Shown one piece after another: positions 3,158-49,078 of a stretch of 64,000 bases of DNA (position 1 is its first letter; each line of letters starts with the position of its first letter). A program made the position numbers and the translations under genes. The stretch comes from Bacilli bacterium (GTDB lineage: Bacteria; Bacillota_I; Bacilli_A; ML615J-28; CAG-313), in NCBI GenBank assembly GCA_017501465.1, contig JAFVWY010000009.1, positions 115,092 through 179,091 of the forward strand, written 5' to 3'. The notes under the pieces are model-generated. The model saw only the letters and a program-made list of their open reading frames with translations, was not told where the DNA came from and did no database searches.

Positions 3158-3729
3158 TGATTTATTTAGAATTATTTTTTGAATTCTTTAAAATTGGTCT
3201 ATTCACATTTGGTGGTGGATTTGCAATGATACCTTTAGTAAAAGATTTAGTAGTAACAAAAGGTTGGCTTGGTGTTGAAGAATTTACTAACCTTATTGGT
3301 GTATGTGAATCTACGCCAGGTCCAATTGCTATTAATATGGCTACATATGTTGGTTCAATACAAGCAGGATTTTTTGGTAGTGTTTGTGCAACTATTGGTG
3401 TTGTTTTACCATCAGTTATTATAATAATTTTAATTGCTGCAATTTTGAAAAACCTAACTACAAATATTTATTTTAGATCATTTATAAAAGGGGTTAAACC
3501 AATTATTTCAGCTCTTATTTTATCAACAGGTCTAATTTTACTTGCAAAATGTTTTGGCTATGAAAATATACATACTATATCATTTAAAATTGTGCCAATA
3601 ATAGTATTTGCAATTATTGCTTTAGTATATTTTTTAAGCACAAAAGTTTTAAAGAAGAAAGTGTCTTCAATTCAATTAATTATTTTATCAGCAATCTTAG
3701 GTATTGGTATATCTTTAATAATGGAGTAA
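3157..3729 (+). CDS. chrA: chromate transporter ChrA family, second half-size paralog
   Basis: FGGGFAMIPL, CESTPGPIAINMATYVG motifs. Its start is coupled to the stop of the upstream half (ATAATG). Confidence 0.75.
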   Translation: MIYLELFFEFFKIGLFTFGGGFAMIPLVKDLVVTKGWLGVEEFTNLIGVCESTPGPIAINMATYVGSIQAGFFGSVCATIGVVLPSVIIIILIAAILKNLTTNIYFRSFIKGVKPIISALILSTGLILLAKCFGYENIHTISFKIVPIIVFAIIALVYFLSTKVLKKKVSSIQLIILSAILGIGISLIME

Positions 3730-3732
3730 AAA

Positions 3733-4545
3733 ATGGAAATCATTAAATACAATAATGGAATTGATTTTTATAATGATAATTTAGAAATATTAAATACACA
3801 TTTAATTGAAACTGCTTTCTTTAAATTGAATTACCCATTTATAAATACTTATGAAAAAGAAAATTACGCAATAAAAATAAAAGATAAAGACAAATATTTA
3901 ATTGCTCTTCAAAGAACACCTTATAATTTATTAATATTTGGTAATCATTTACTAACAAAGAATTTAGTTGAAATAATTAAAAAAGATGATTTAAAAGTAA
4001 ATGGTATTTTAACTAATAAATTAATAAGTAACGAATTCTTAAAAGAAGCTTCTAGATCATTTGACGGATTCTTTACTCTTAGAAATGATATGAGTATTTT
4101 AACTTGTAATAAATTTAATCAATTAAATCATTCATATGAAATATTAACTCCAACTGAACTTGATTTAAATGAATTAAAAGAATTACATGAACTATTTCAT
4201 GAAGAAATCTATCATGAAAAAGCTACTTATGAAATTGATGATATTTTACCTGATTTAAACAGCTATCAAATAATAAAACTAGACAATAAAATTGTTTCAA
4301 TGGTTAAAAAAGTTAGAGATGAGTTAACAATTTGTAGTATTTCTTTTGTATATACTAGAATTAATTATCGTTCTAAAGGGCTTGCAAGAATTTTAGTAAC
4401 TAATCTAACTAATGAAATAGTTTCTAATAATAAAACAGCATATTTATTTGTAGATAACTTAAATCCTATTTCTAACCATTTATATACTTCAATTGGATAT
4501 TGTTTAAAAGAAGAAAGAATTGAATATATTTATAATAAAAAATAA
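3733..4545 (+). CDS. hypothetical protein with C-terminal GNAT acetyltransferase-like domain
   Basis: C-terminal RINYRSKGLARILVTNL resembles the GNAT motif A region. The N-terminal 150 aa have no recognised motif. Confidence 0.45.
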   Translation: MEIIKYNNGIDFYNDNLEILNTHLIETAFFKLNYPFINTYEKENYAIKIKDKDKYLIALQRTPYNLLIFGNHLLTKNLVEIIKKDDLKVNGILTNKLISNEFLKEASRSFDGFFTLRNDMSILTCNKFNQLNHSYEILTPTELDLNELKELHELFHEEIYHEKATYEIDDILPDLNSYQIIKLDNKIVSMVKKVRDELTICSISFVYTRINYRSKGLARILVTNLTNEIVSNNKTAYLFVDNLNPISNHLYTSIGYCLKEERIEYIYNKK

Positions 4546-12015: not shown

Positions 12016-12952
12016 TAAAAATCATATAGGTACTTTGTATGAATATCACGAGTTAAAACAATATACGACATTTAAAATTGGTGGAATTTGTAGGTATTAT
12101 ATAGAGGTTAGTTCAATAGTAAAATTAAGCTTATTGATTAAATACTTAAAAAAAATTAATTATTTATATTATATTTTGGGAAATGGCTCTAATTTATTAA
12201 TAGATGATTGTTTTTTAGATTGTGTTTTTATAAGTTTAAAAAAGCTTAATAAAATTACAAAATTAGCTGAAAACATATATATGTTAGATGCAGGACTTAA
12301 ACCTAATCTATTAGGAATCAAGCTAGTAAAAGATGGTTTTATTGATGCGATACCATTTTGTTTAATTCCAGGAACAATTGGTGGTTTAACTTATATGAAT
12401 GCATCTTGTTTTAAAAAAAGTATTCAAAATATTGTCAAGTCTGTAATTTGTATGGACCATTTTGGTAATATCATATTCTTAAAAGATTGTCAGTTTAGTT
12501 ACCGAAAAAGTATATTCCAAGAGTTGAACTTAATAATATTAAAGGTAATATTTGAGTTTAAAGAAAAAAAAGAAGATGCCTATTCTACTTTAAAAAAGTA
12601 TCAAAATATTAAAAAAACAACCCAACCAATGTTAGTAAATACTAGTGGTAGTATGTTTATGAATGATTTAAATTATCATGCTTGGGAGCTAATAGATAAA
12701 TTAAAATTAAGAGGTTTTTCAATAAATGATGCTTGTATTAGTATGATTCATACTAACTTTTTTCTTAATAAAGGAAATGCTAAATTCAAAGAAATGATAG
12801 CTTTAATCTATTATGTTAAAACTAAAATATTTTTAGAATTTAATATCAAATTAAAATTAGAAGTAAAAATAATTACTATTCAATCTATTGCCTATTCAAA
12901 GAATAATTTGAGGAATAAGATAGATTGGGAGGGGAATTATGAATCATTTTAA
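11993..12952 (+). CDS. murB: UDP-N-acetylenolpyruvoylglucosamine reductase
   Basis: TTFKIGG and LGNGSNLLIDD FAD-binding motifs. Position after murG. Confidence 0.7.
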   Translation: MMLKDYISKNHIGTLYEYHELKQYTTFKIGGICRYYIEVSSIVKLSLLIKYLKKINYLYYILGNGSNLLIDDCFLDCVFISLKKLNKITKLAENIYMLDAGLKPNLLGIKLVKDGFIDAIPFCLIPGTIGGLTYMNASCFKKSIQNIVKSVICMDHFGNIIFLKDCQFSYRKSIFQELNLIILKVIFEFKEKKEDAYSTLKKYQNIKKTTQPMLVNTSGSMFMNDLNYHAWELIDKLKLRGFSINDACISMIHTNFFLNKGNAKFKEMIALIYYVKTKIFLEFNIKLKLEVKIITIQSIAYSKNNLRNKIDWEGNYESF

Positions 12953-13337
12953 TTATTTTAAAAATTACAAGAATAATAATACTTTAGTTTCTTTAGCTAC
13001 ACCTACAACTGGTTTTAAAAGAGGAAATATGTTTAATAATCTTTATAAACCCTATAGGAATTATTCGGTTAGCGACTTAACATTTAAAACTGATAAAGAA
13101 CGTTTAATGTATGAAATTCAAATGCATTCGTTTGTGGTGAATGATTTAGTTTTATATTTAGATGTTAATCCAACTGATCAAGAAGCTTTAAGAAGTTTTA
13201 AAGAATATAATCAAAAGTATAATTTACTTGTAAATGAGTTTGAACGAAAGTATCATCCTTTATGTATCAATTCAGAACAGTTTAATCAAAACTATTTTGA
13301 ATGGGTTAATAATTGGCCTAAAGGGGTGATGATGTAA
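12939..13337 (+). CDS. cotJB: CotJA-like / CotJB fusion protein
   Basis: N-terminal GNMFNNLYKPY resembles the CotJA core. The C-terminal 85 aa, LMYEIQMHSFVVNDLVLYLDVNPTDQEALRSFKEYNQKYNLLVNEFERKYHPL, match the CotJB domain. Coupled to cotJC. Confidence 0.6.
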   Translation: MNHFNYFKNYKNNNTLVSLATPTTGFKRGNMFNNLYKPYRNYSVSDLTFKTDKERLMYEIQMHSFVVNDLVLYLDVNPTDQEALRSFKEYNQKYNLLVNEFERKYHPLCINSEQFNQNYFEWVNNWPKGVMM

Positions 13338-13897
13338 TGTGGAAATATGAAAAGATTTTAGCATTTCCAATGAACATTAAAAAGAAAGACTTAAGGCTTG
13401 CAAAAGTAATATTAAGTCAATATGGTGGTCCACAAGGTGAATTAGGAGCTGCTTTAAGATATTTAAATCAAAGCTATACTATGCCTGATGATTATGGTAA
13501 AGCATTACTTAAAGATATTGGTACAGAAGAACTATCTCACGTTGAAATGCTTTGTGAAATGGTAGTTCAACTAACAAAAGATGCAACCATTAAGGAAATT
13601 AAAGAAGCTCATTTAGAGGATTACTTTACAGAACATGGTTTAGATTTATATGCACAAAATGCTTCAGGTGTTAGCTTTGATACAAAAGTCTTTTCATCTG
13701 TTGGTGATGTAATTGCAAATATTCATGAAGACATGGCGGCTGAAGAAAAAGCAAGAGCAGTATATGAACATTTAATTGACTTAACCGATGATGAAGAAGT
13801 CTTAAGACCACTACTTTTCTTAAGACAAAGAGAAATTGTTCATTATGCAAGATTTAAAGAATTATTAGAACATTATCAATCAAAAATGAATGAGTAA
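13337..13897 (+). CDS. cotJC: manganese catalase-family protein CotJC
   Basis: 186 aa. LRYLNQSYTMP and EELSHVEML di-metal ligand regions typical of CotJC / Mn-catalase. Confidence 0.8.
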   Translation: MWKYEKILAFPMNIKKKDLRLAKVILSQYGGPQGELGAALRYLNQSYTMPDDYGKALLKDIGTEELSHVEMLCEMVVQLTKDATIKEIKEAHLEDYFTEHGLDLYAQNASGVSFDTKVFSSVGDVIANIHEDMAAEEKARAVYEHLIDLTDDEEVLRPLLFLRQREIVHYARFKELLEHYQSKMNE

Positions 13898-23648: not shown

Positions 23649-23721
23649 ATAAAAAAACACATTAGAATTTCTAATGTGTTTTTAATTTGTAAAAATATTC
23701 TTTTTGATATATAATAATAGT

Positions 23722-23876
23722 GTTCTTCAGGGCAGGGTGTAATTCCCGACCGGCAGTAAAGTCTGCGAAATCTAAATGATTTGATGAGGTTAGATTCCTC
23801 AACCGATAGTATAGTCTAGATGAAAGAAGAAATCCATTTCTTTTTTTGTCGCTCTGTAGCGGCTTTTTATTTTATT
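23722..23876 (+). promoter_or_regulatory. FMN riboswitch (RFN element) with intrinsic terminator expression platform
   Basis: ttcttcagggcagggtgtaattcccgaccggcagtaaagtctgcgaaa...ggttagattcctcaaccgatagtatagtctagatgaaagaagaa matches the conserved RFN core. Followed by gtcgctctgtagcggc hairpin plus T-run. Confidence 0.8.
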
Positions 23877-23889
23877 TAAAGGATGGTTT

Positions 23890-24522
23890 ATGTATATGAA
23901 AAAAAGAAAAGTAACAACAGCGTGGGAAGTTCAAGTAGCAATCCTTTCTGCACTTGCCATTATTTTATACAATTTTCCTAAGTTTCAACTTCCGTTTTTT
24001 CCTGGTATGTTAAGTGTGCAATTTTCTATGTTACCTACTATTATTGGTGGTTTTGCTTTAGGTCCAGTTGGCGGAATCTATATTGTATTAATTAAGTTTA
24101 TTTTTAAATTACTAACAACAAGATCAGCTGGGGTTGGAGAATTTGTTGATTTAATTATAGGAGTTTGTGTAGTACTTGTTACTTCACTAATTTATAAATA
24201 TATTAAAAGTAAAAAAGGAGCCATTATTGCCTTAATTATGGGATCTATTACTTGGGTAGTAGTTGCGGTTATTTTAAACTGGCTTTGGGCAATACCATTT
24301 TATTGTAATACTTTTGGTATGGATAAAGTAATTGGTATGATAATGGTAATACCTGGCGTTAATGAAAGCAATTATATGAGTAAATATTTATTATTTGGAT
24401 GTTTACCATTTAATCTTATGTTAGCAAGTGTAGTAAGTATAGTCACATATATTATATATAAAAGAGTTTCTTGGTTATTTGAGAAAATGACTAATAAAAT
24501 AGAAAAGAAAAATAGAGTTTAA
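23890..24522 (+). CDS. ribU: riboflavin transporter RibU (ECF S-component)
   Basis: Sits downstream of the FMN riboswitch. About six TM helices, 210 aa. LPTIIGGFALGPVGG segment typical of RibU/YpaA. Confidence 0.75.
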   Translation: MYMKKRKVTTAWEVQVAILSALAIILYNFPKFQLPFFPGMLSVQFSMLPTIIGGFALGPVGGIYIVLIKFIFKLLTTRSAGVGEFVDLIIGVCVVLVTSLIYKYIKSKKGAIIALIMGSITWVVVAVILNWLWAIPFYCNTFGMDKVIGMIMVIPGVNESNYMSKYLLFGCLPFNLMLASVVSIVTYIIYKRVSWLFEKMTNKIEKKNRV

Positions 24523-30182: not shown

Positions 30183-30789
30183 TTTTGAATTTGAAGAAAA
30201 ACTATATCTTGAAGGTTGTAAATACATTGCAGGATGTGATGAGGTAGGAAGAGGCTGTATTGCAGGTCCAGTTTATGCTTGCTGTGTAATTATGAAACCA
30301 ACTAGTAAGATAGAAGGCGTTAATGATTCTAAAAAATTAACTGATAAAAAAAGAAGAGAACTATTACCTAAAATTTTACAAGATGCGGTATGTTATAAAG
30401 TTATTGCGATTGATAATGATGAGATTGACAAAATTAATATTTTAGAGGCTTCTAGAAAAGCAATGGAATTAGCTTTAGAAGGTTTAGAAGTAAAGCCTGA
30501 TTATGTATTAACTGATGCTATGAAGTTACATACTACTATTCCTTATCAAGACATTATTAAAGGTGATCTTAGAAGTTATACAATAGGCTGTGCTTCGATT
30601 ATTGCAAAAGTTTTTAGGGATGATTATATGATTGCGTTATCTAAGGAATTTCCTGGATATGACTGGGATAAGAATAAAGGATATCCAACTAAAAGACATA
30701 AACAATCTTTATATGAATTAGGTGTGACTAAGTATCACAGAAAAAGCTATGATCCCGTTCGAATTTGTTTAGAAAAGTCTAATTTATGA
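30175..30789 (+). CDS. rnhB: ribonuclease HII
   Basis: GCDEVGRGCIAGPV active-site motif. Follows rbgA, as in Bacillus. Confidence 0.85.
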   Translation: MNNFEFEEKLYLEGCKYIAGCDEVGRGCIAGPVYACCVIMKPTSKIEGVNDSKKLTDKKRRELLPKILQDAVCYKVIAIDNDEIDKINILEASRKAMELALEGLEVKPDYVLTDAMKLHTTIPYQDIIKGDLRSYTIGCASIIAKVFRDDYMIALSKEFPGYDWDKNKGYPTKRHKQSLYELGVTKYHRKSYDPVRICLEKSNL

Positions 30790-30971
30790 TATATATATAA
30801 AAGTAAAATCAAAGAATAGATTCTTTGATTTTTTTTCTTTTTGGTTTACAATTTAAATTTTGTTTGATAAAATGAAAAGCACAAAAGTTTCGAAAAAAAT
30901 TAAATTGCGAAAAGTTTATTGCATTAAATTTATAATGCGTGATATAATTAATTTGAAAAGGAATGATATAA

Positions 30972-33083
30972 ATGAAATTACTTATTGTTGAATCTCCATC
31001 AAAGTCTAAAACAATTGAAAATTATTTAGGTCAAGACTATAAAGTTGTTGCCTCTCTTGGTCATATTAGAGATTTAAGAATAAAGGGGAAAGGCGGCTTT
31101 GGTGTTGATGTTGAAAACAACTTTCAACCCGAATATAGCATCTTGCCTGAGAAAAAAGAAGTAGTAGATCAATTGATTGAACTTGCAAATGAGGCAGAAC
31201 ATATATATCTTGCAACCGACCCGGATAGAGAAGGGGAAGCAATTAGTTGGCATTTACAAGAAGTATTAGAACAAGAACCAGAAAAAGTTTCACGAATTGT
31301 TTTTAACGAAATTACAAAAACAGCTGTTACTAATGCGATAAAAAATGATCGTCAAATTGATATGGGTCTAGTTCATTCTCAAGAATCTAGAAGAATTATT
31401 GATAGAATTATTGGCTTTAGATTATCAAGTTTGCTTCAACAAAAATTAGGTTCTAAATCAGCTGGACGTGTTCAATCTGTTGCGTTAAAACTTATTGTTG
31501 ATAGAGAAAAAGAGATTGAGGCTTTCGATAAAGAAGAATATTGGGATGTTTTTTCAATTATAAATAAAGAAGATCAAGAATATAAATTAAAGCTAGTACG
31601 TTTTAATGATGAAAAGATTGAACTTACAAATGAAGAATCAGCAAAAAAAGTATTAAATGATTTACATAAAGCAAACTTTAAAGTTGAATCTATTGAAACT
31701 AAAGAAAGAAAAAGAATCGCAAAAGCACCTTTTATAACAAGTACCCTTCAACAAGATGCTGGTGTTAGATTTAAATATAATGCGAAAAGAACAATGTTAA
31801 TTGCTCAAAAACTATATGAAGGTATTGATGTAGGCAAAGAAAGAGTTGGTTTAATAACTTATATGCGTACTGACTCAGTAAGACTTTCTGATGATTTTAT
31901 TAATGAAGCGAAGAAGTATGTTAAATCTAATTTTGGTGATAAATATTATAAAGGGTATAAAGTAAAAAATAAAAAGAACCAAAAAATTCAAGATGCCCAC
32001 GAAGCGATAAGACCTACATCACTTGAAAGAACACCCGAAAAAATGAAAAAATATTTATCAAGTGATGAATTAAAAATTTATACAATTATTTATCAAAGAG
32101 CATTATCTAGTGTAATGAGTGATGCTTTAGTAGAAGATACAATCGTTACAGTTGATGCTGCTAATTATAAGTTTGAACTTAGTGGTGAAAAAACACTATT
32201 TGATGGCTTCCAAAGAGTCTATAAAGAAATGGTTGAAGATGAAACAGAAATTAGTGGTCTTCCTGACTTTTTACAAGATGAAAAATTAAATGTTATAGAC
32301 GTAAAGAGCGAACAAAAATATACTAATCCTCCATATCGTTATACGGAAGTTAGATTAATTAAGAAGATGGAAGATTTAGGTATTGGACGTCCATCTACTT
32401 ACGCTCTTACAATGGAAACTTTAAGAGTTAGAAGTTATGTTACAATGGATAAGAGAACTTTCGTTCCATCTGAACAAGGTCGTCTTACAAGTGATCAATT
32501 AGATATTTATTTTAAAGATATTATCAATGTTAAATATACTGCTGAAATGGAAAATACTTTAGACTCTATTAGTGAAGGTCATGCAGTATGGTATGAAGAA
32601 ATTAGAAAATTCTATGACACATTTATGCCATTAATAGAAAATGCTAGGGATAATATGATAAAAATTTATCCAAAACCTACCGATGAATTTTGTCCAGAAT
32701 GTGGATTACCATTATTCATTAGAAGGGGTCCATTTGGTGAATTTACTGCTTGTAGTGGTTACCCTCATTGTAAATATATTAAGAAAAAACCTAAACCTGA
32801 ACCAGTTCATACAGGTATTAGTTGTCCGCTTTGTAAAGAAGGCGAACTTGTAGAAAGAATTAATGTACGTGGTAGAACAAAGGGTTCTTTATTTTATGCA
32901 TGTAGTCGATTCCCAGATTGTAGAGCAACTTACTCTGGTCTTCCTAATGGTGAAATTTGTGCTGTTTGTGGTGGACCAATGATTACTGTAAATGATGAAA
33001 TTGTTTGTGGAAATGAAAAGTGTAAAACCAATAAAGAAAGAAGAGCAAAAGAAAGAGAACTTCAAAAAAAGGTAATTTCTTAA
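30972..33083 (+). CDS. topA: DNA topoisomerase I
   Basis: MKLLIVESPSKSKTIENYLG Toprim N-terminus. C-terminal Cys4 zinc ribbons. Confidence 0.9.
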   Translation: MKLLIVESPSKSKTIENYLGQDYKVVASLGHIRDLRIKGKGGFGVDVENNFQPEYSILPEKKEVVDQLIELANEAEHIYLATDPDREGEAISWHLQEVLEQEPEKVSRIVFNEITKTAVTNAIKNDRQIDMGLVHSQESRRIIDRIIGFRLSSLLQQKLGSKSAGRVQSVALKLIVDREKEIEAFDKEEYWDVFSIINKEDQEYKLKLVRFNDEKIELTNEESAKKVLNDLHKANFKVESIETKERKRIAKAPFITSTLQQDAGVRFKYNAKRTMLIAQKLYEGIDVGKERVGLITYMRTDSVRLSDDFINEAKKYVKSNFGDKYYKGYKVKNKKNQKIQDAHEAIRPTSLERTPEKMKKYLSSDELKIYTIIYQRALSSVMSDALVEDTIVTVDAANYKFELSGEKTLFDGFQRVYKEMVEDETEISGLPDFLQDEKLNVIDVKSEQKYTNPPYRYTEVRLIKKMEDLGIGRPSTYALTMETLRVRSYVTMDKRTFVPSEQGRLTSDQLDIYFKDIINVKYTAEMENTLDSISEGHAVWYEEIRKFYDTFMPLIENARDNMIKIYPKPTDEFCPECGLPLFIRRGPFGEFTACSGYPHCKYIKKKPKPEPVHTGISCPLCKEGELVERINVRGRTKGSLFYACSRFPDCRATYSGLPNGEICAVCGGPMITVNDEIVCGNEKCKTNKERRAKERELQKKVIS

Positions 33084-33111
33084 AAAAAATTGTAAAATCA
33101 AATAGAAATAC

Positions 33112-33141
33112 TTGACAAAATGTCGAAGTTTATGATACAAT
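33112..33141 (+). promoter_or_regulatory. sigma70-like promoter (TTGACA-18-TGaTACAAT) with no adjacent ORF
   Basis: TTGACA at 33112..33117, extended -10 tgatacaat at 33133..33141. It precedes a palindrome and an intrinsic terminator, not a CDS. Confidence 0.5.
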
Positions 33142-33208
33142 AATCTTGTCCTAGGAATTCTAGGACATTACATATCCCCTACATTATATGTTAATATATT
33201 ATTAGCAT

Positions 33209-33246
33209 ATGGCCATCTTTCCCCTAGATGGCCACTTTTTTTTATT
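33209..33246 (+). terminator. intrinsic terminator closing a ~100-nt orphan transcript
   Basis: Perfect 10-bp inverted repeat atggccatct / agatggccac with a 7-nt loop, followed by tttttttttatttt. Confidence 0.65.
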
Positions 33247-33302
33247 TTAGTTGCCTAAAAGTTAAAAATGTAGTATAATACACAAAGAAAGGTGGGAATA
33301 CT

Positions 33303-34286
33303 ATGGGTTTATTTTCAATCTTTAAAAAGAAAAAAAGTCAAGATAATAAAGCTTTGGAAAAAGCTAATAAATATAAATTAGGTATGGCTAAGACTAGAAA
33401 TGGTCTTATGAATAAGTTAAAAGGTTTATTTACAAGTTATAATGAAGTTACAGAAGATTTATTTGATGATCTTACTGATATCTTCATTATGGCAGATATT
33501 GGTGTGGAAACAACTCTGGATTTCATTGAAGAATTAAAAGAAGATGAAAGAGTAGAAGATGTTACTACTCCTGAAGAATTACATCCAATAATAGTTGATA
33601 AGATGTTTGAGCTTTATTTAAAAAATGAAATTGTTGATACGTCTCTTAACATAAAAGAAGATGATTTAAGTGTTTTATTATTTGTTGGTGTTAATGGTGT
33701 TGGAAAAACAACAACAATTGCTAAAATTGCTCATCGCTTAGTAGAAGAAGGCAAAAAGGTTTTACTTGCTGCTGGGGACACTTTTAGAGCTGGAGCAATT
33801 GATCAATTAAAAGTTTGGGGAGAACGCTTAGGCCTTAATGTTGTCTGTAAGGCTGAAGGTAGCGATCCTTCTAGTGTAATTTTTGATGCAATACAAATTG
33901 CAAAAGAAGAAAAATATGATGTTCTTTTATGTGATACTGCCGGAAGACTACAAAATAAAACTAATCTAATGGCAGAACTTGAAAAAATGAATCGTGTAAT
34001 CAAGAAAGAAATTCCTGATGGTCCACATGAGACTTTACTAGTTATTGATGCTACAACTGGCCAAAATGGGTTATCCCAAGCAGAAGCATTTAAAGAAATT
34101 ACTGATGTTACAGGGGTAGTTCTAACTAAACTTGATGGCACTAGTAAAGGCGGTATTGTTTTAGCAATTCGTGATAAATATAATCTACCTATTAAATTTG
34201 TTGGTCTTGGTGAAAAAATGGAAGACTTAGAATACTTTGATTTAGAAGATTATATATATGGATTATTTGGAGACGACGATGAATAA
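33303..34286 (+). CDS. ftsY: signal recognition particle receptor FtsY
   Basis: GVNGVGKTTTIAKIA P-loop. DTAGR. SRP-GTPase NG domain. Confidence 0.9.
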   Translation: MGLFSIFKKKKSQDNKALEKANKYKLGMAKTRNGLMNKLKGLFTSYNEVTEDLFDDLTDIFIMADIGVETTLDFIEELKEDERVEDVTTPEELHPIIVDKMFELYLKNEIVDTSLNIKEDDLSVLLFVGVNGVGKTTTIAKIAHRLVEEGKKVLLAAGDTFRAGAIDQLKVWGERLGLNVVCKAEGSDPSSVIFDAIQIAKEEKYDVLLCDTAGRLQNKTNLMAELEKMNRVIKKEIPDGPHETLLVIDATTGQNGLSQAEAFKEITDVTGVVLTKLDGTSKGGIVLAIRDKYNLPIKFVGLGEKMEDLEYFDLEDYIYGLFGDDDE

Positions 34287-34593
34287 TCTAATTGAGAAGA
34301 AAACTTACTATAATATTCTATATAGTTATTATGGAGAGTTATTAACAGATAAACAAAAAGAAGTTTTTGTCGCATATTATGAAGAAGATTTTAGTTTAAA
34401 AGAAATTGCTGATAGTTTAGGTATTTCTAGAAACGCTGTTCATGATGCTTTAAAAACATGTATAAAAAATTTAGAACATTTTGAAAATGTTTTAAAACTT
34501 TATGAAAAAAATACAAAAAGATCAATTCTTTATCAAGAATATGAAAACAATGAAACAAAAGAATTAATTAACAAACTTAAAGAAATGGAGTGA
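34258..34593 (+). CDS. ylxM: YlxM (UPF0122) putative DNA-binding protein of the ffh operon
   Basis: LTDKQKEVFVAYYEEDFSLKEIADSLGISRNAVHDALK sigma-70 region-4-like HTH. Position between ftsY and ffh. Confidence 0.7.
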   Translation: MDYLETTMNNLIEKKTYYNILYSYYGELLTDKQKEVFVAYYEEDFSLKEIADSLGISRNAVHDALKTCIKNLEHFENVLKLYEKNTKRSILYQEYENNETKELINKLKEME

Positions 34594-34598
34594 GCTAA

Positions 34599-36005
34599 AT
34601 GCCTTTTGAAAGTTTATCAGAGCGTTTAGGAATGGCCCTTAGAAGATTAACGGGTCGAGGAAGAATAAACGAAAATGATATCGATGAAATGATGAAAGAA
34701 GTTAGGGTTTCATTGCTTGAGGCCGATGTTAACTATAAAGTAGTTAAAGCTTTCATCAAAGATGTAAAAGAAAAATCTTTAGGCGAACGTGTAATGAAAT
34801 CACTTACTCCTGGAGATCAAGTATTAAAAATAGTAGATGAAGAATTAAAAATGTTAATGGGTGAAGAAGCTACGCCTATTAATATGAATCCAAATGGTAC
34901 AACAGTTATTTTACTTGCTGGTCTTCAAGGTAGTGGTAAAACAACACATGCTGGTAAATTAGCATCTTATCTTAGAAAGCATTATAATTCTAAACCTTTA
35001 TTAGTTGCAGCTGATATTTACAGACCAGCTGCTGTTAATCAATTAGTTACTCTTGGTAAACAACTAAATATTGATGTTTATGAACAAGGTACCTCAAAAA
35101 AACCTGAGGATATTGTTAAGGAAGCTTTAGCTTATGCTAAAGCCAAAAGTAACAACGTTGTGATTATTGATACTGCTGGTCGTTTATCAATTGATGAAGC
35201 TTTGATGCAAGAGTTAGTTAATATTAAAAACATTGCCAAACCTCATGAAATCTTACTTGCAGTTGATGCAATGACTGGTCAAGATGCTGTGAATGTTGCT
35301 ATTCAGTTTAATAATGCTTTAAGTGTTACTGGTTGTATTTTAACCAAATTAGATAGTGACACAAGAGGTGGGGCTGCTTTGTCAATTAGATACATGACAA
35401 ACATTCCAATTAAGTTCTGTGGTATGGGAGAAAAATTAGATCAAATTGAAGTATTCCATCCTGATAGAATGGCAAGTAGAATTCTTGGTATGGGGGATGT
35501 GTTAACCTTAATTGATAAAGCAACTGAAAATATTGATGAAACTGAAGCTATGAATATTGCGGAAAGATTACAAAAAGGTTACTTTAATTATTATGATTTT
35601 TTAAAACAACTGAAGATGATTAAAAGGATGGGTTCTTTAAAAGGAATCTTAAGTTTATTACCAGGCATGGGTAAACAATTAAAAAATATTGATATAGATG
35701 ATAAAAAATTTGTTTATATTGAATCAATCATTGGATCAATGACTAATGAAGAAAGAAAAAATCCAGAACTTGTTAATACAAGTCGTTCAAGAAAAGAACG
35801 TATCGCAAAAGGTTCTGGTAGAAGTTATCCTGAAGTTAACAATCTTACTCAACAATTTGAAACTATGAAAAAACAAATGAAACAAATGATGGGTTTATCA
35901 GAAGATGAAATGGAAAAAATGTCGAAAGGTCAATATGTTCCTAATATGCCTAAACAAAAAGCTAAAAAAGGTAAAGGCAAGAATAAAGGAGGATTTAGAT
36001 TCTAG
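34599..36005 (+). CDS. ffh: signal recognition particle protein Ffh (SRP54)
   Basis: GLQGSGKTT P-loop. NG domain. Methionine-rich M domain. Basic C-terminus. Confidence 0.95.
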   Translation: MPFESLSERLGMALRRLTGRGRINENDIDEMMKEVRVSLLEADVNYKVVKAFIKDVKEKSLGERVMKSLTPGDQVLKIVDEELKMLMGEEATPINMNPNGTTVILLAGLQGSGKTTHAGKLASYLRKHYNSKPLLVAADIYRPAAVNQLVTLGKQLNIDVYEQGTSKKPEDIVKEALAYAKAKSNNVVIIDTAGRLSIDEALMQELVNIKNIAKPHEILLAVDAMTGQDAVNVAIQFNNALSVTGCILTKLDSDTRGGAALSIRYMTNIPIKFCGMGEKLDQIEVFHPDRMASRILGMGDVLTLIDKATENIDETEAMNIAERLQKGYFNYYDFLKQLKMIKRMGSLKGILSLLPGMGKQLKNIDIDDKKFVYIESIIGSMTNEERKNPELVNTSRSRKERIAKGSGRSYPEVNNLTQQFETMKKQMKQMMGLSEDEMEKMSKGQYVPNMPKQKAKKGKGKNKGGFRF

Positions 36006-36412
36006 TGAGTAATGATCGTTGGTATAAACGCTTGGGTTGGTTCTTATTATTTTCTTGTATTACTTTATTAATATTTTTTGTTTTAGATTATGCTTTTAAC
36101 GCATTTACAGAAAAATATACATCAACAAGATTTACTGCATTTTATGTTGAAGCTGAATATAAATATAAAGAAAGCGACACCATTGTTTTAACTTTGGATA
36201 CAGATGCAACAAGTTTTACTGTTGATTTATGGATTGATGAAGAAAATACTGGACTTACTTTTGAAAATGAAAAAACCATTTCATTTAAACTTAGCGAATT
36301 AAGTATAGATTTAGAACCAGGAACTTACACTGTGAAGTCTTCAGTGTTTGGTAAAAAAGGATTAAGTAGGGAAAGAGAAGTATTAATTACTACTACTTTA
36401 ATAATTGAATAA
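36005..36412 (+). CDS. hypothetical membrane-anchored protein
   Basis: GTG start overlaps the ffh stop. One N-terminal TM helix. No motif. It occupies the rpsP position found in Bacillus. Confidence 0.35.
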   Translation: MSNDRWYKRLGWFLLFSCITLLIFFVLDYAFNAFTEKYTSTRFTAFYVEAEYKYKESDTIVLTLDTDATSFTVDLWIDEENTGLTFENEKTISFKLSELSIDLEPGTYTVKSSVFGKKGLSREREVLITTTLIIE

Positions 36413-36454
36413 AAATGATTTTTATTTATTCATTGGATGAATAGAGGGTTAATT

Positions 36455-37453
36455 ATGTACATTAAAGAAAATTATCAAAGCAAGTTAACAATTTATGAAA
36501 CACAAGTTGCTATTGGTTTACTTAAAAAAAGCTTTGAAAAACATTTAAGTGAAGCATTAAATATTAAAAGAGTATCCGCACCTTTATTTGTAGAGGCAAC
36601 TAGCGGGTTAAATGATGATTTAAATGGTGTTGAAAAAGCAGTTTCTTTTACTTTAAAAAATAAAGATCAAGAATTACAAATAGTTCATTCTTTAGCCAAA
36701 TGGAAACGTCTTGCTTTATATGAATATAAGTTCCCTGTTGGGGAGGGTTTATATACCGATATGAATGCGATTAGAAAAGAAGAAGATCTAGATAACATTC
36801 ATTCTATTTATGTTGACCAATGGGATTGGGAAAAAGTAATTACAAAAAAAGATCGTACACTATCATATCTAAAAGAAATAGTTAGAAAAATAGTTCACGC
36901 CATTTATCTTACAAATTTAGAAATGAATAGCTTATTTCCTAAGCTTTCATATCTAATTCAAGACGAAGTATCATTTATAACTAGTGAAGAGTTAAGATGT
37001 ATGTATCCTTCTTTAACTCCTAAAGAAAGAGAAAATATATATGTTAAAGAACATCCAGTGACATTTTTAATGCAGATTGGGAAAATCTTATCTGATGGAA
37101 CTAAACACGATGGCCGCGCTCCTGATTATGATGATTGGGATTTAAATGGCGACATTTTAGTTTATAATCCTATCTTAGATCAAGCTTTTGAGTTATCTTC
37201 AATGGGTATTAGAGTAGATCAAGAATCTTTATTAAAACAATTAAAAATATCAAATAAAGAAGAACGTAAAAATTTGTATTTTCATAAGATGTTGCTTAAT
37301 GGGTATCTTCCATTAACTATTGGTGGTGGGATTGGTCAGTCTAGACTATCAATGTTGTTACTAGAAAAAGCTCATATTGGTGAGGTTCAAGTATCAATTT
37401 GGGATGAAGAAACGAAAAAGTATTGTCTGGAAAAAGGGATTACTTTATTATAG
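36455..37453 (+). CDS. asnA: aspartate--ammonia ligase (asparagine synthetase A)
   Basis: MYIKENYQSKLTIYETQVAIGLLK N-terminus typical of AsnA. Class II aaRS-like core. GAGGG RBS before the ATG at 36455. Confidence 0.8.
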   Translation: MYIKENYQSKLTIYETQVAIGLLKKSFEKHLSEALNIKRVSAPLFVEATSGLNDDLNGVEKAVSFTLKNKDQELQIVHSLAKWKRLALYEYKFPVGEGLYTDMNAIRKEEDLDNIHSIYVDQWDWEKVITKKDRTLSYLKEIVRKIVHAIYLTNLEMNSLFPKLSYLIQDEVSFITSEELRCMYPSLTPKERENIYVKEHPVTFLMQIGKILSDGTKHDGRAPDYDDWDLNGDILVYNPILDQAFELSSMGIRVDQESLLKQLKISNKEERKNLYFHKMLLNGYLPLTIGGGIGQSRLSMLLLEKAHIGEVQVSIWDEETKKYCLEKGITLL

Positions 37454-48717: not shown

Positions 48718-49078
48718 GGGCTAGTATTGGTTTCGACGGGATGTTAGAAGGTTGATAAGCATACCGTGGTCATGCACGTTAAAACATCTAGGTTTAAAAT
48801 AACCGGAAATCAAAATTTAGCTTTCTGCTAGGCTTAAATAGCAGATCCTAATAATTAGGGTAACTCCTTTGTGTCTTGCCTATGTGATACAAAAGGATTC
48901 AGAGAATAGGCTATGATGATCATATTAGCTTCGGTATAGGATTCGAGATTTAGAGCTGGTAGTAATTATGTTTTGTTTATTTTCATAATTACTATGAGAC
49001 CAAATTAATAAACTAAGTATGTAGAAAATTGATTAGATAATGTTTCGGACGCGGTTTCGACTACCGCCTAGTCCACCA
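48718..49078 (+). ncRNA. ssrA: transfer-messenger RNA (tmRNA, ssrA)
   Basis: 5' GGGCUAG pairs with 3' CUAGUCC, then discriminator A plus encoded CCA. GGUUUCGACGGG D-analog. T-arm GCGGUUUCGACUACCGC with UUCGACU loop. 361 nt. Internal tag ORF ends with UAG. Another frame ends with UAA UAA. Confidence 0.85.

Follow-up and report, generated by a model that had tools for sequence, protein, structure and literature searches.

A C-rich candidate small RNA embedded in the topA 3' region of RF39-like gut Bacilli, Izemoplasmatales and Acholeplasmataceae

Introduction

Conserved trans-acting small RNAs (sRNAs) are rare in Bacillota. RsaE/RoxS is described as the sole trans-acting sRNA, besides 6S RNA, that is common to Staphylococcus aureus and Bacillus subtilis (PMC4409812). 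Through duplicated unpaired CCCC motifs, it binds Shine-Dalgarno (SD) sequences and prevents initiation, with no strong requirement for Hfq, and the pairing of these motifs with G-rich SDs also creates substrates for RNase III/Y (PMC4409812, PMC6158497). The conserved duplicated sequence of RoxS is CCCCUUUGUU (PMC4409812). In Actinobacteria, unpaired C-rich loops are reported to operate as the anti-SD seeds of 6C (PMC6486639).

Unpaired C-rich loops or linkers likewise serve as anti-SD seeds in FsrA and CsfG of B. subtilis and in the Rsa family of S. aureus. The same is true of LhrC in Listeria. Another relevant arrangement is that of DapZ and MicL, two 3'UTR-embedded sRNAs of enterobacteria, which possess their own promoter and make use of the terminator of the upstream gene.

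The Acholeplasma-, RF39- and Izemoplasma-type lineages are frequently encountered in animal guts and in sediments, and most of them have not been cultured. In the literature, we found no report of a conserved trans-acting sRNA in these genome-reduced lineages, and publications on sRNAs of Acholeplasma/Mollicutes and on RsaE outside Bacillales yielded no description of an RNA such as the one presented here. This RNA is predicted from a window of 64,000 nucleotides (the whole stretch of DNA that was analysed, to which all coordinates refer), originating from a Bacilli bacterium. A first-pass annotation of the window had proposed that a stand-alone sRNA gene of about 100 nt, and not a leader, lies between topA and ftsY. 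Its stand-alone nature is now supported by the recurrence of the whole unit in relatives, by covariation and by an invariant C-rich core.

Results

Organization of the topA-ftsY intergenic region

In the window, topA (30972-33083, 703 amino acids) and ftsY (33303-34286, ATG at 33303) lie on the plus strand, like all the features of the element described below, and they are separated by 219 nt that are 100% identical among five independent assemblies of the same species. The G+C content is 25-31%, and the genes occur in the order signal peptidase, RbgA-like GTPase, rnhB, topA, the sRNA element, ftsY, ylxM and ffh. The ftsY-ylxM-ffh operon is tightly packed: the last 8 nt of ftsY (34279-34286) are shared with the start of ylxM (UPF0122), and ffh begins 5 nt after ylxM.

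The predicted sRNA promoter comprises the -35 hexamer TTGACA (33112-33117) and, after an 18-nt spacer, the extended -10 element TGaTACAAT (33133-33141; TG at 33133-33134 and TACAAT at 33136-33141). It had been noticed earlier as a near-consensus sigma70 promoter, and it does match 11 of the 12 consensus positions in addition to the TG, which makes it the best site of the 6-kb region scanned (30500-36500), where promoter-like sites as a whole occur at chance level (32 found for 33 expected). Transcription is predicted to start at about 33147-33149 and to end in a run of eight T (33236-33243). As the first-pass annotation had also reported, the promoter of the ftsY operon (TTGCCT-17-TATAAT, 33251-33279) is separate from that of the sRNA and stands after the terminator and before ftsY. 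No open reading frame (ORF) of at least 20 amino acids occurs on the plus strand within the element. A small-peptide gene was considered and rejected, both for this lack of ORFs of at least 20 amino acids and for the mini-ORFs being unlike each other in relatives.

The predicted transcript folds into three hairpins (P1 to P3). P1 (33147-33167) has an 8-bp stem (TGTCCTAG/CTAGGACA, arms at 33147-33154 and 33160-33167) closed by the 5-nt loop GAATT; this is the structure that had been taken for a perfect 19-bp palindrome, the centre of the 19-mer being in reality not self-complementary. It is followed by a linker (linker 1, 33168-33185), which contains the C-rich region 1 and is unpaired in both the minimum-energy and the centroid folds. 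Within this linker lies the 14-mer ACATATCCCCTACA (33170-33183), which is identical in more than 20 species. P2 (33186-33210), an AU-rich hairpin seen in the fold, had been missed by the first-pass annotation. P3 (33210-33234) is the stem of the intrinsic terminator. The 7-nt loop and the T run of this terminator (eight T) agree with the earlier description, which gave a perfect 10-bp stem, but the GC-rich stem itself has nine pairs (TGGCCATCT/AGATGGCCA, arms at 33210-33218 and 33226-33234), the claimed tenth being an A.C opposition. The loop of P3 (33219-33225) harbours the C-rich region 2 (UUCCCCU).

Both C-rich regions belong to a 10-nt direct repeat, which had also been overlooked: its copies TCCCCTACAT (33175-33184) and TCCCCTAGAT (33220-33229) are both predicted to be unpaired and fall in the P1-P2 linker and in the loop of the terminator, respectively, so that UCCCCUA is present twice (33175-33181 in the linker and 33220-33226 in the P3 loop). 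The plus strand folds at -33.4 kcal/mol, as compared with -13.7 ± 2.7 kcal/mol for shuffled sequences (z = -7.3, none of the 200 shuffles being as good). The window copy has about six additional nucleotides (33168-33173, the stretch ACAUUACAU) between P1 and the conserved CAUAUCCCC block, which are not found in relatives and correspond to an insertion or to a local duplication of ACAU. Positions 33148-33243 of the plus strand most likely encode an independently transcribed sRNA of about 90-95 nt.

Conservation of the element in relatives

The ftsY locus was collected from 80 species-representative genomes. The closest FtsY relatives come from uncultured gut or rumen genomes labelled 'Bacilli bacterium', 'uncultured Mollicutes bacterium' or 'Staphylococcus sp. 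CAG:324', a group which we take to be the GTDB order RF39, and the more distant ones from Izemoplasmatales, Anaeroplasmataceae and Acholeplasmataceae/Mariniplasma. A unit made of the promoter, the three hairpins and the terminator occurs directly 3' of topA in 48 of the 80 loci. The carriers are RF39-like gut Bacilli, Izemoplasmatales and Acholeplasmataceae, i.e. about 50 species that are Mollicutes-like and mostly uncultured. The first-pass annotation had named a non-conserved spacer in close relatives as a result that would speak against an sRNA; the opposite was observed, as the unit recurs in 48 other species.

A short-word BLAST of the intergenic region retrieved a single block, ACATATCCCCTACA, that is conserved to the letter, and in the same position, in more than 20 species, the TopA proteins of which are just 65-80% identical to that of the window. 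The layout around this block is common to the copies: a sigma70 promoter, P1, the C-rich linker, P2, usually a second C-rich linker, the terminator and a U run. The sequence of P1 is quite different from one lineage to another and P2 is variable too, while the linker core ACAUAUCCCCUACA is invariant among the RF39-type copies and UAUCCCCUA is retained in the Acholeplasmataceae copies. Freely varying stems standing beside an invariant single strand point to a functional RNA with a seed rather than to a spacer. In most relatives, the P2-P3 linker, the usual form of which is (A)CCCUUCCU, holds another C-rich block (CCCUUCCU or AUCCCCUUAAU), and CCCC is often present in the P3 loop as well; relatives have two or three C-rich blocks. 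This second linker is missing in the window and in two related loci (L008 and L009), where the second C-rich motif lies in the terminator loop instead. In Acholeplasmataceae, the order is P1 (GCAUYC...GRAUGC), the linker UACUUAUCCCCUAUU, P2 (GUGUAC...GUACAC), the linker AAAAUCCCCUUAAU, P3 and the U run.

A -35/-10 pair is visible at the same distance from P1 in nearly all the homologous loci. In the window, the spacer of the sRNA promoter contains the motif TGTCGAA (33121-33127), which may be the site of a transcription factor or another regulator, as suggested by its recurrence in RF39-type loci: 15 of 26 such loci have GTCGAA in the 100 nt before P1, the background being 0.14 occurrences per kb on each strand. 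The motif, (A)TGTCGAA(A), which is also seen for instance in L011, L013, L019 and L038, has two locations, either within the spacer or some 20 nt before the -35 hexamer, and it is found in none of the Acholeplasmataceae or Izemoplasmatales promoters.

The other 32 of the 80 loci have no match to the final covariance model (R3, see below), and several of them clearly lack the element despite having topA directly upstream of ftsY, indicating that the sRNA is dispensable. That these relatives keep topA next to ftsY implies that the sRNA was lost repeatedly. Six loci have this arrangement (L014-L016, L018, L024 and L036, the last one as judged by model search only). In the five of them for which the upstream sequence was read (L014-L016, L018 and L024), a simple hairpin terminator ends topA and is immediately followed by the conserved ftsY promoter. 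Even relatives without the sRNA retain the context of the ftsY -10 element (tagtataat) in front of ftsY.

Covariance models and structural support

Since a MAFFT structural alignment put the variable stems out of register, it was replaced by iterative covariance models. The R1 model, built from three sequences of one clade, recovered 26 copies; it scored the window copy, which belongs to another clade, at a marginal 15.7 bits (E = 1.7). R2 brought in Izemoplasmatales and about 16 Acholeplasmataceae, and R3 was built from 37 sequences. The window copy scored higher with R2 and R3, a rise that is partly circular, since R2 had been trained on the window copy itself and R3 on the copy from the same species (L004); that the window copy belongs to the family is concluded instead from the 14-mer, which is identical, and from its shared architecture and position. 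R3 gave 49 matches, all of which (49/49) lie on the plus strand directly after topA, and no further match up to E = 5 in 706 kb. A weak R2 match on the antisense strand of ffh (window 35438-35519, minus strand; 21.7 bits, E = 0.11) was judged a false positive, because it vanished with the broader R3.

In the 37-sequence alignment (36 distinct rows), 95.5% of the cells pair; this falls to 34-44% if the 3' partners are displaced by one to three columns. P3 is 99.4% paired. Double changes occur among the 36 distinct sequences in all 22 modelled pairs (six of six in P1, seven of seven in P2 and nine of nine in P3), and the covariation score is 0.98 versus 0.22 for shuffles; as the alignment was fitted to the model, the pair counts lean towards the structure. 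Two checks that are independent of the model fit agree with the structure: RNAalifold returned the same three helices, with 20 pairs and compensatory changes in each helix, and all the members examined adopted these three hairpins in single-sequence minimum-energy folds.

The element is attached to topA

As the loci had been selected through ftsY, an ftsY-independent check was carried out by scanning metagenome contigs for ACATATCCCCTACA-N15-35-CCCTTCCT. All 11 motif-only matches lie directly 3' of topA on the same strand, and three of the 11 contigs have no ftsY within 4.6-11 kb downstream. Downstream of the element, RF39-type and Izemoplasmatales loci have ftsY, and Acholeplasmataceae have tpx, which possesses its own TGATATAAT promoter; a 190-amino-acid ORF follows in L010, and unrelated genes follow in L038, L088, L091 and L093. 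This variation makes the ftsY/SRP neighbourhood incidental. Of the earlier placement of the element between topA and ftsY, the link to topA thus holds, as the element is always directly 3' of this gene, but the downstream partner is not constant. In L057, L062, L071, L073, L075 and other Acholeplasmataceae, a 166-amino-acid ORF that, from a reading of its sequence, looks like a thiol peroxidase gene (tpx) occupies the interval (at about 3440-3945) between the sRNA terminator and ftsY, the order being topA, sRNA, tpx and ftsY.

The gap between the topA stop codon and P1 has a median of 64.5 nt (range 40-180 nt), which is about the length of a promoter. A terminator-like hairpin occurs in this gap in one of 44 loci and not in the window, where the sole plus-strand terminator after topA is P3 (33210-33234), the most likely end of the topA mRNA. 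With no terminator of its own, topA would have the sRNA as part of its 3'UTR. As far as can be judged from sequence, the sRNA is embedded in the topA 3' region, with a predicted promoter of its own and a terminator common to topA. The first terminator after topA being that of the sRNA is a feature of 3'UTR-embedded sRNAs. As in stand-alone sRNAs in general, the promoter and the intrinsic terminator are conserved in position, coding potential is absent and the structure is supported by covariation. Unlike a cis-acting leader, the element has an inconstant downstream gene and a separate promoter after its terminator.

Comparison with known RNA families

A covariance-model scan, which had been proposed earlier as a check, assigned the intergenic region to no Rfam family. 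At the gathering score, Rfam 15 detected in the whole window only a tmRNA gene and an FMN riboswitch, both elsewhere: the former is full length (48718-49078, plus strand; RF00023, 144.6 bits) and the latter (23719-23835, plus strand; RF00050, 108.5 bits) lies just upstream of a 210-amino-acid ORF starting at 23890. With the threshold relaxed to E ≤ 10, the intergenic region and 10 homologous loci gave noise only (for instance an RsaOG match on L017 at 23 bits for a threshold of 50, E = 9.6), and RsaE, SRP RNA and 6S were never matched. The earlier statement that the element is not an SRP RNA is borne out by this search.

The element resembles RsaE/RoxS (RF01820) by its size (about 100 nt), its own promoter, its intrinsic terminator and its hairpins lying between duplicated unpaired CCCC motifs. 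The 10-nt duplication is CCCCUUUGUU in RoxS and TCCCCTAcAT plus TCCCCTAgAT in the window RNA. The two RNAs differ in several respects. The RF01820 model is unmatched, even at E ≤ 10, in the 11 members scanned; the motif flanks are UAUCCCCUACA, CCCUUCCU or AUCCCCUUAAU here, as opposed to the conserved duplicated CCCCUUUGUU in RoxS; the syntenic position is the topA 3' region here and a redox-gene neighbourhood there. RsaE/RoxS occurs in Staphylococcaceae and Bacillaceae and has ResD/SrrA and Rex as regulators, whereas the present element occurs in Acholeplasmatales, RF39-like Bacilli and Izemoplasmatales. FsrA, CsfG, the Rsa family, LhrC and 6C are separated from it by the lack of any covariance-model match here, the noise-level RsaOG match on L017 being the sole overlap. 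The element is like DapZ and MicL in that its promoter is at the end of the upstream gene and a single terminator would serve both the mRNA and the sRNA, but its promoter stands just after the stop codon instead of inside the coding sequence, and its hosts are Bacillota-related. From these comparisons, we regard the RNA as a separate, new family within a type of regulator that is already known; it would work like RsaE without being a member of the RsaE family.

Search for targets

The complementarity of C-rich region 1 to the start regions of topA, ftsY, ylxM, ffh, rnhB, rbgA, tpx and ruvAB was at background level. For topA, the pairing of the start regions with the unpaired segments ranged from -3.6 to -14.9 kcal/mol, with a mean of -7.6 kcal/mol that is marginally above the controls (-6.1 kcal/mol for random windows and -6.6 kcal/mol for shuffled start regions). 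The exact complement of the motif, TAGGGGA, is found in the window at the frequency expected by chance (4 found for 3.4 expected), its two sites outside the element lying in coding-like sequence and not beside a start codon. Scoring of the whole sRNA with RNAduplex gave artefactual long-range duplexes and was dropped.

The best-scoring start regions of the 64 kb were those of cotJB and cotJC, which have unusual GGGG-type SDs and are, among the starts with GGGG in the SD window, those whose products were confirmed by Pfam. They were rejected as targets, the G-rich SD not being kept in the syntenic relatives L098 and L099. The cotJB-cotJC pair (12939-13897, plus strand; Pfam CotJB and Mn_catalase/Rubrerythrin) lies just upstream of ftsZ in the window, and between murB and ftsZ in L098 and L099, so that 'spore coat' genes are present in a gut lineage that is Mollicutes-like. 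The negative results on targets are weak, because the screen covered only 64 kb of the genome.

Discussion

A probable trans-acting riboregulator

We think it probable that the RNA is a trans-acting, C-rich, anti-SD riboregulator of the RsaE/RoxS type. This reading is favoured because the layout matches that of RsaE/RoxS and other C-rich sRNAs of Bacillota, namely a size of about 90 nt, a 5' hairpin, a duplicated unpaired UCCCC and a terminator loop with a C-rich motif. According to this proposal, transcription would proceed from the extended -10 promoter right after the topA stop codon and would end at the intrinsic terminator that would also serve topA. The RNA would fold into P1, P2 and P3, thereby displaying the two unpaired copies of UCCCCUA, and these C-rich motifs would pair in trans with the G-rich SD/start regions of target mRNAs, so as to block the binding of the 30S subunit and, probably, trigger cleavage by RNases. 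The 14-nt invariant block is longer than generic anti-SD pairing needs, and it could be the binding site of a protein or of one specific partner.

Alternative explanations

The C-rich motif could instead act in cis, as a part of the topA 3'UTR that pairs with the SD of the topA mRNA or otherwise controls the stability or translation of topA. There is a precedent in the S. aureus icaR 3'UTR, where a UCCCC motif acts in cis on the same mRNA. Such an action would account for the invariable position of the element, immediately 3' of topA and in the same orientation, and the topA mRNA should contain the whole element, as 43 of 44 loci have no terminator before P1. Yet a pure 3'UTR element would not need the strong promoter that is conserved in the 40-180 nt gap, and the barely elevated pairing of the topA start regions speaks against it too, so we regard a cis-acting element as unlikely. 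Improbable as well, in our opinion, is an RNA that binds a protein, as a sponge or a cofactor, through C-rich strands recognised by, for example, a KH-domain protein, with no pairing to mRNAs. The length of the invariant block, which in the RF39-type copies exceeds a typical anti-SD seed, would suit such a function, and so would the fact that no mRNA target emerged from the neighbouring genes, cotJB/cotJC and the 64 kb of genome; against it stands the layout of the RNA, in which the unpaired CCCC motifs are duplicated and accompanied by a 5' hairpin and a terminator, as documented for base-pairing sRNAs in Bacillota.

Three other explanations are effectively excluded. A riboswitch-like leader or attenuator controlling the ftsY-ylxM-ffh operon by conditional termination would fit what is seen in the window and in most loci of the RF39 type or of Izemoplasmatales, where the element precedes ftsY and has the same orientation. 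This reading is made very improbable by the presence of tpx or unrelated genes downstream in the other loci (tpx in Acholeplasmataceae, the others in L010, L038, L088, L091 and L093), by the separate promoter that is conserved after the terminator and kept in relatives devoid of the element, and by a fold offering no alternative anti-terminator pairing. A mere topA terminator, accompanied by a chance promoter-like sequence and an AT-rich spacer, is conceivable insofar as promoter-like hexamer pairs occur in this AT-rich DNA as often as expected by chance, but this does not explain why P1 and P2 covary, why the linker is invariant across three orders and the promoter conserved in position, or why, in relatives lacking the element, the topA stop codon is directly followed by a simple terminator hairpin; we give it extremely little credence. 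The least credible of all is a highly divergent SRP (4.5S-like) RNA. The bacterial small SRP RNA (RF00169) has a similar size, and in the window the element adjoins the SRP protein genes of the ftsY-ylxM-ffh operon; however, neither the window nor the 10 homologous loci match the family at the gathering score or at E ≤ 10, domain IV features are absent, the conserved blocks are C-rich linkers and not a GNRA-capped helix 8 with conserved internal loops, and the element is linked to topA and missing in many relatives that possess ftsY and ffh.

Implications for Mollicutes-related Bacilli

Returning to the trans-acting riboregulator, it is possible, though we put it forward only tentatively, that it represents the first widely conserved trans-acting sRNA of Mollicutes-related Bacilli (here Acholeplasmatales, RF39-like gut lineages and Izemoplasmatales), i.e. 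an ancient anti-SD riboregulator fused to the topA unit and coupling supercoiling to translation. The covariance model (49 members), the invariant seed and the fixed address 3' of topA provide a handle for the annotation of hundreds of metagenome-assembled genomes. The case indicates, in addition, that the fusion of an sRNA with the terminator of an essential gene can be maintained in three orders or more. If the proposal is true, the output of the sRNA would depend on its own promoter together with read-through or processing of the topA transcript; the seed, with its 14 invariant nucleotides, would suggest pairing with a single specific conserved target, or with a small number of them, rather than generic SD binding; and the supercoiling status of the DNA could thereby be coupled to the translation of a conserved regulon.
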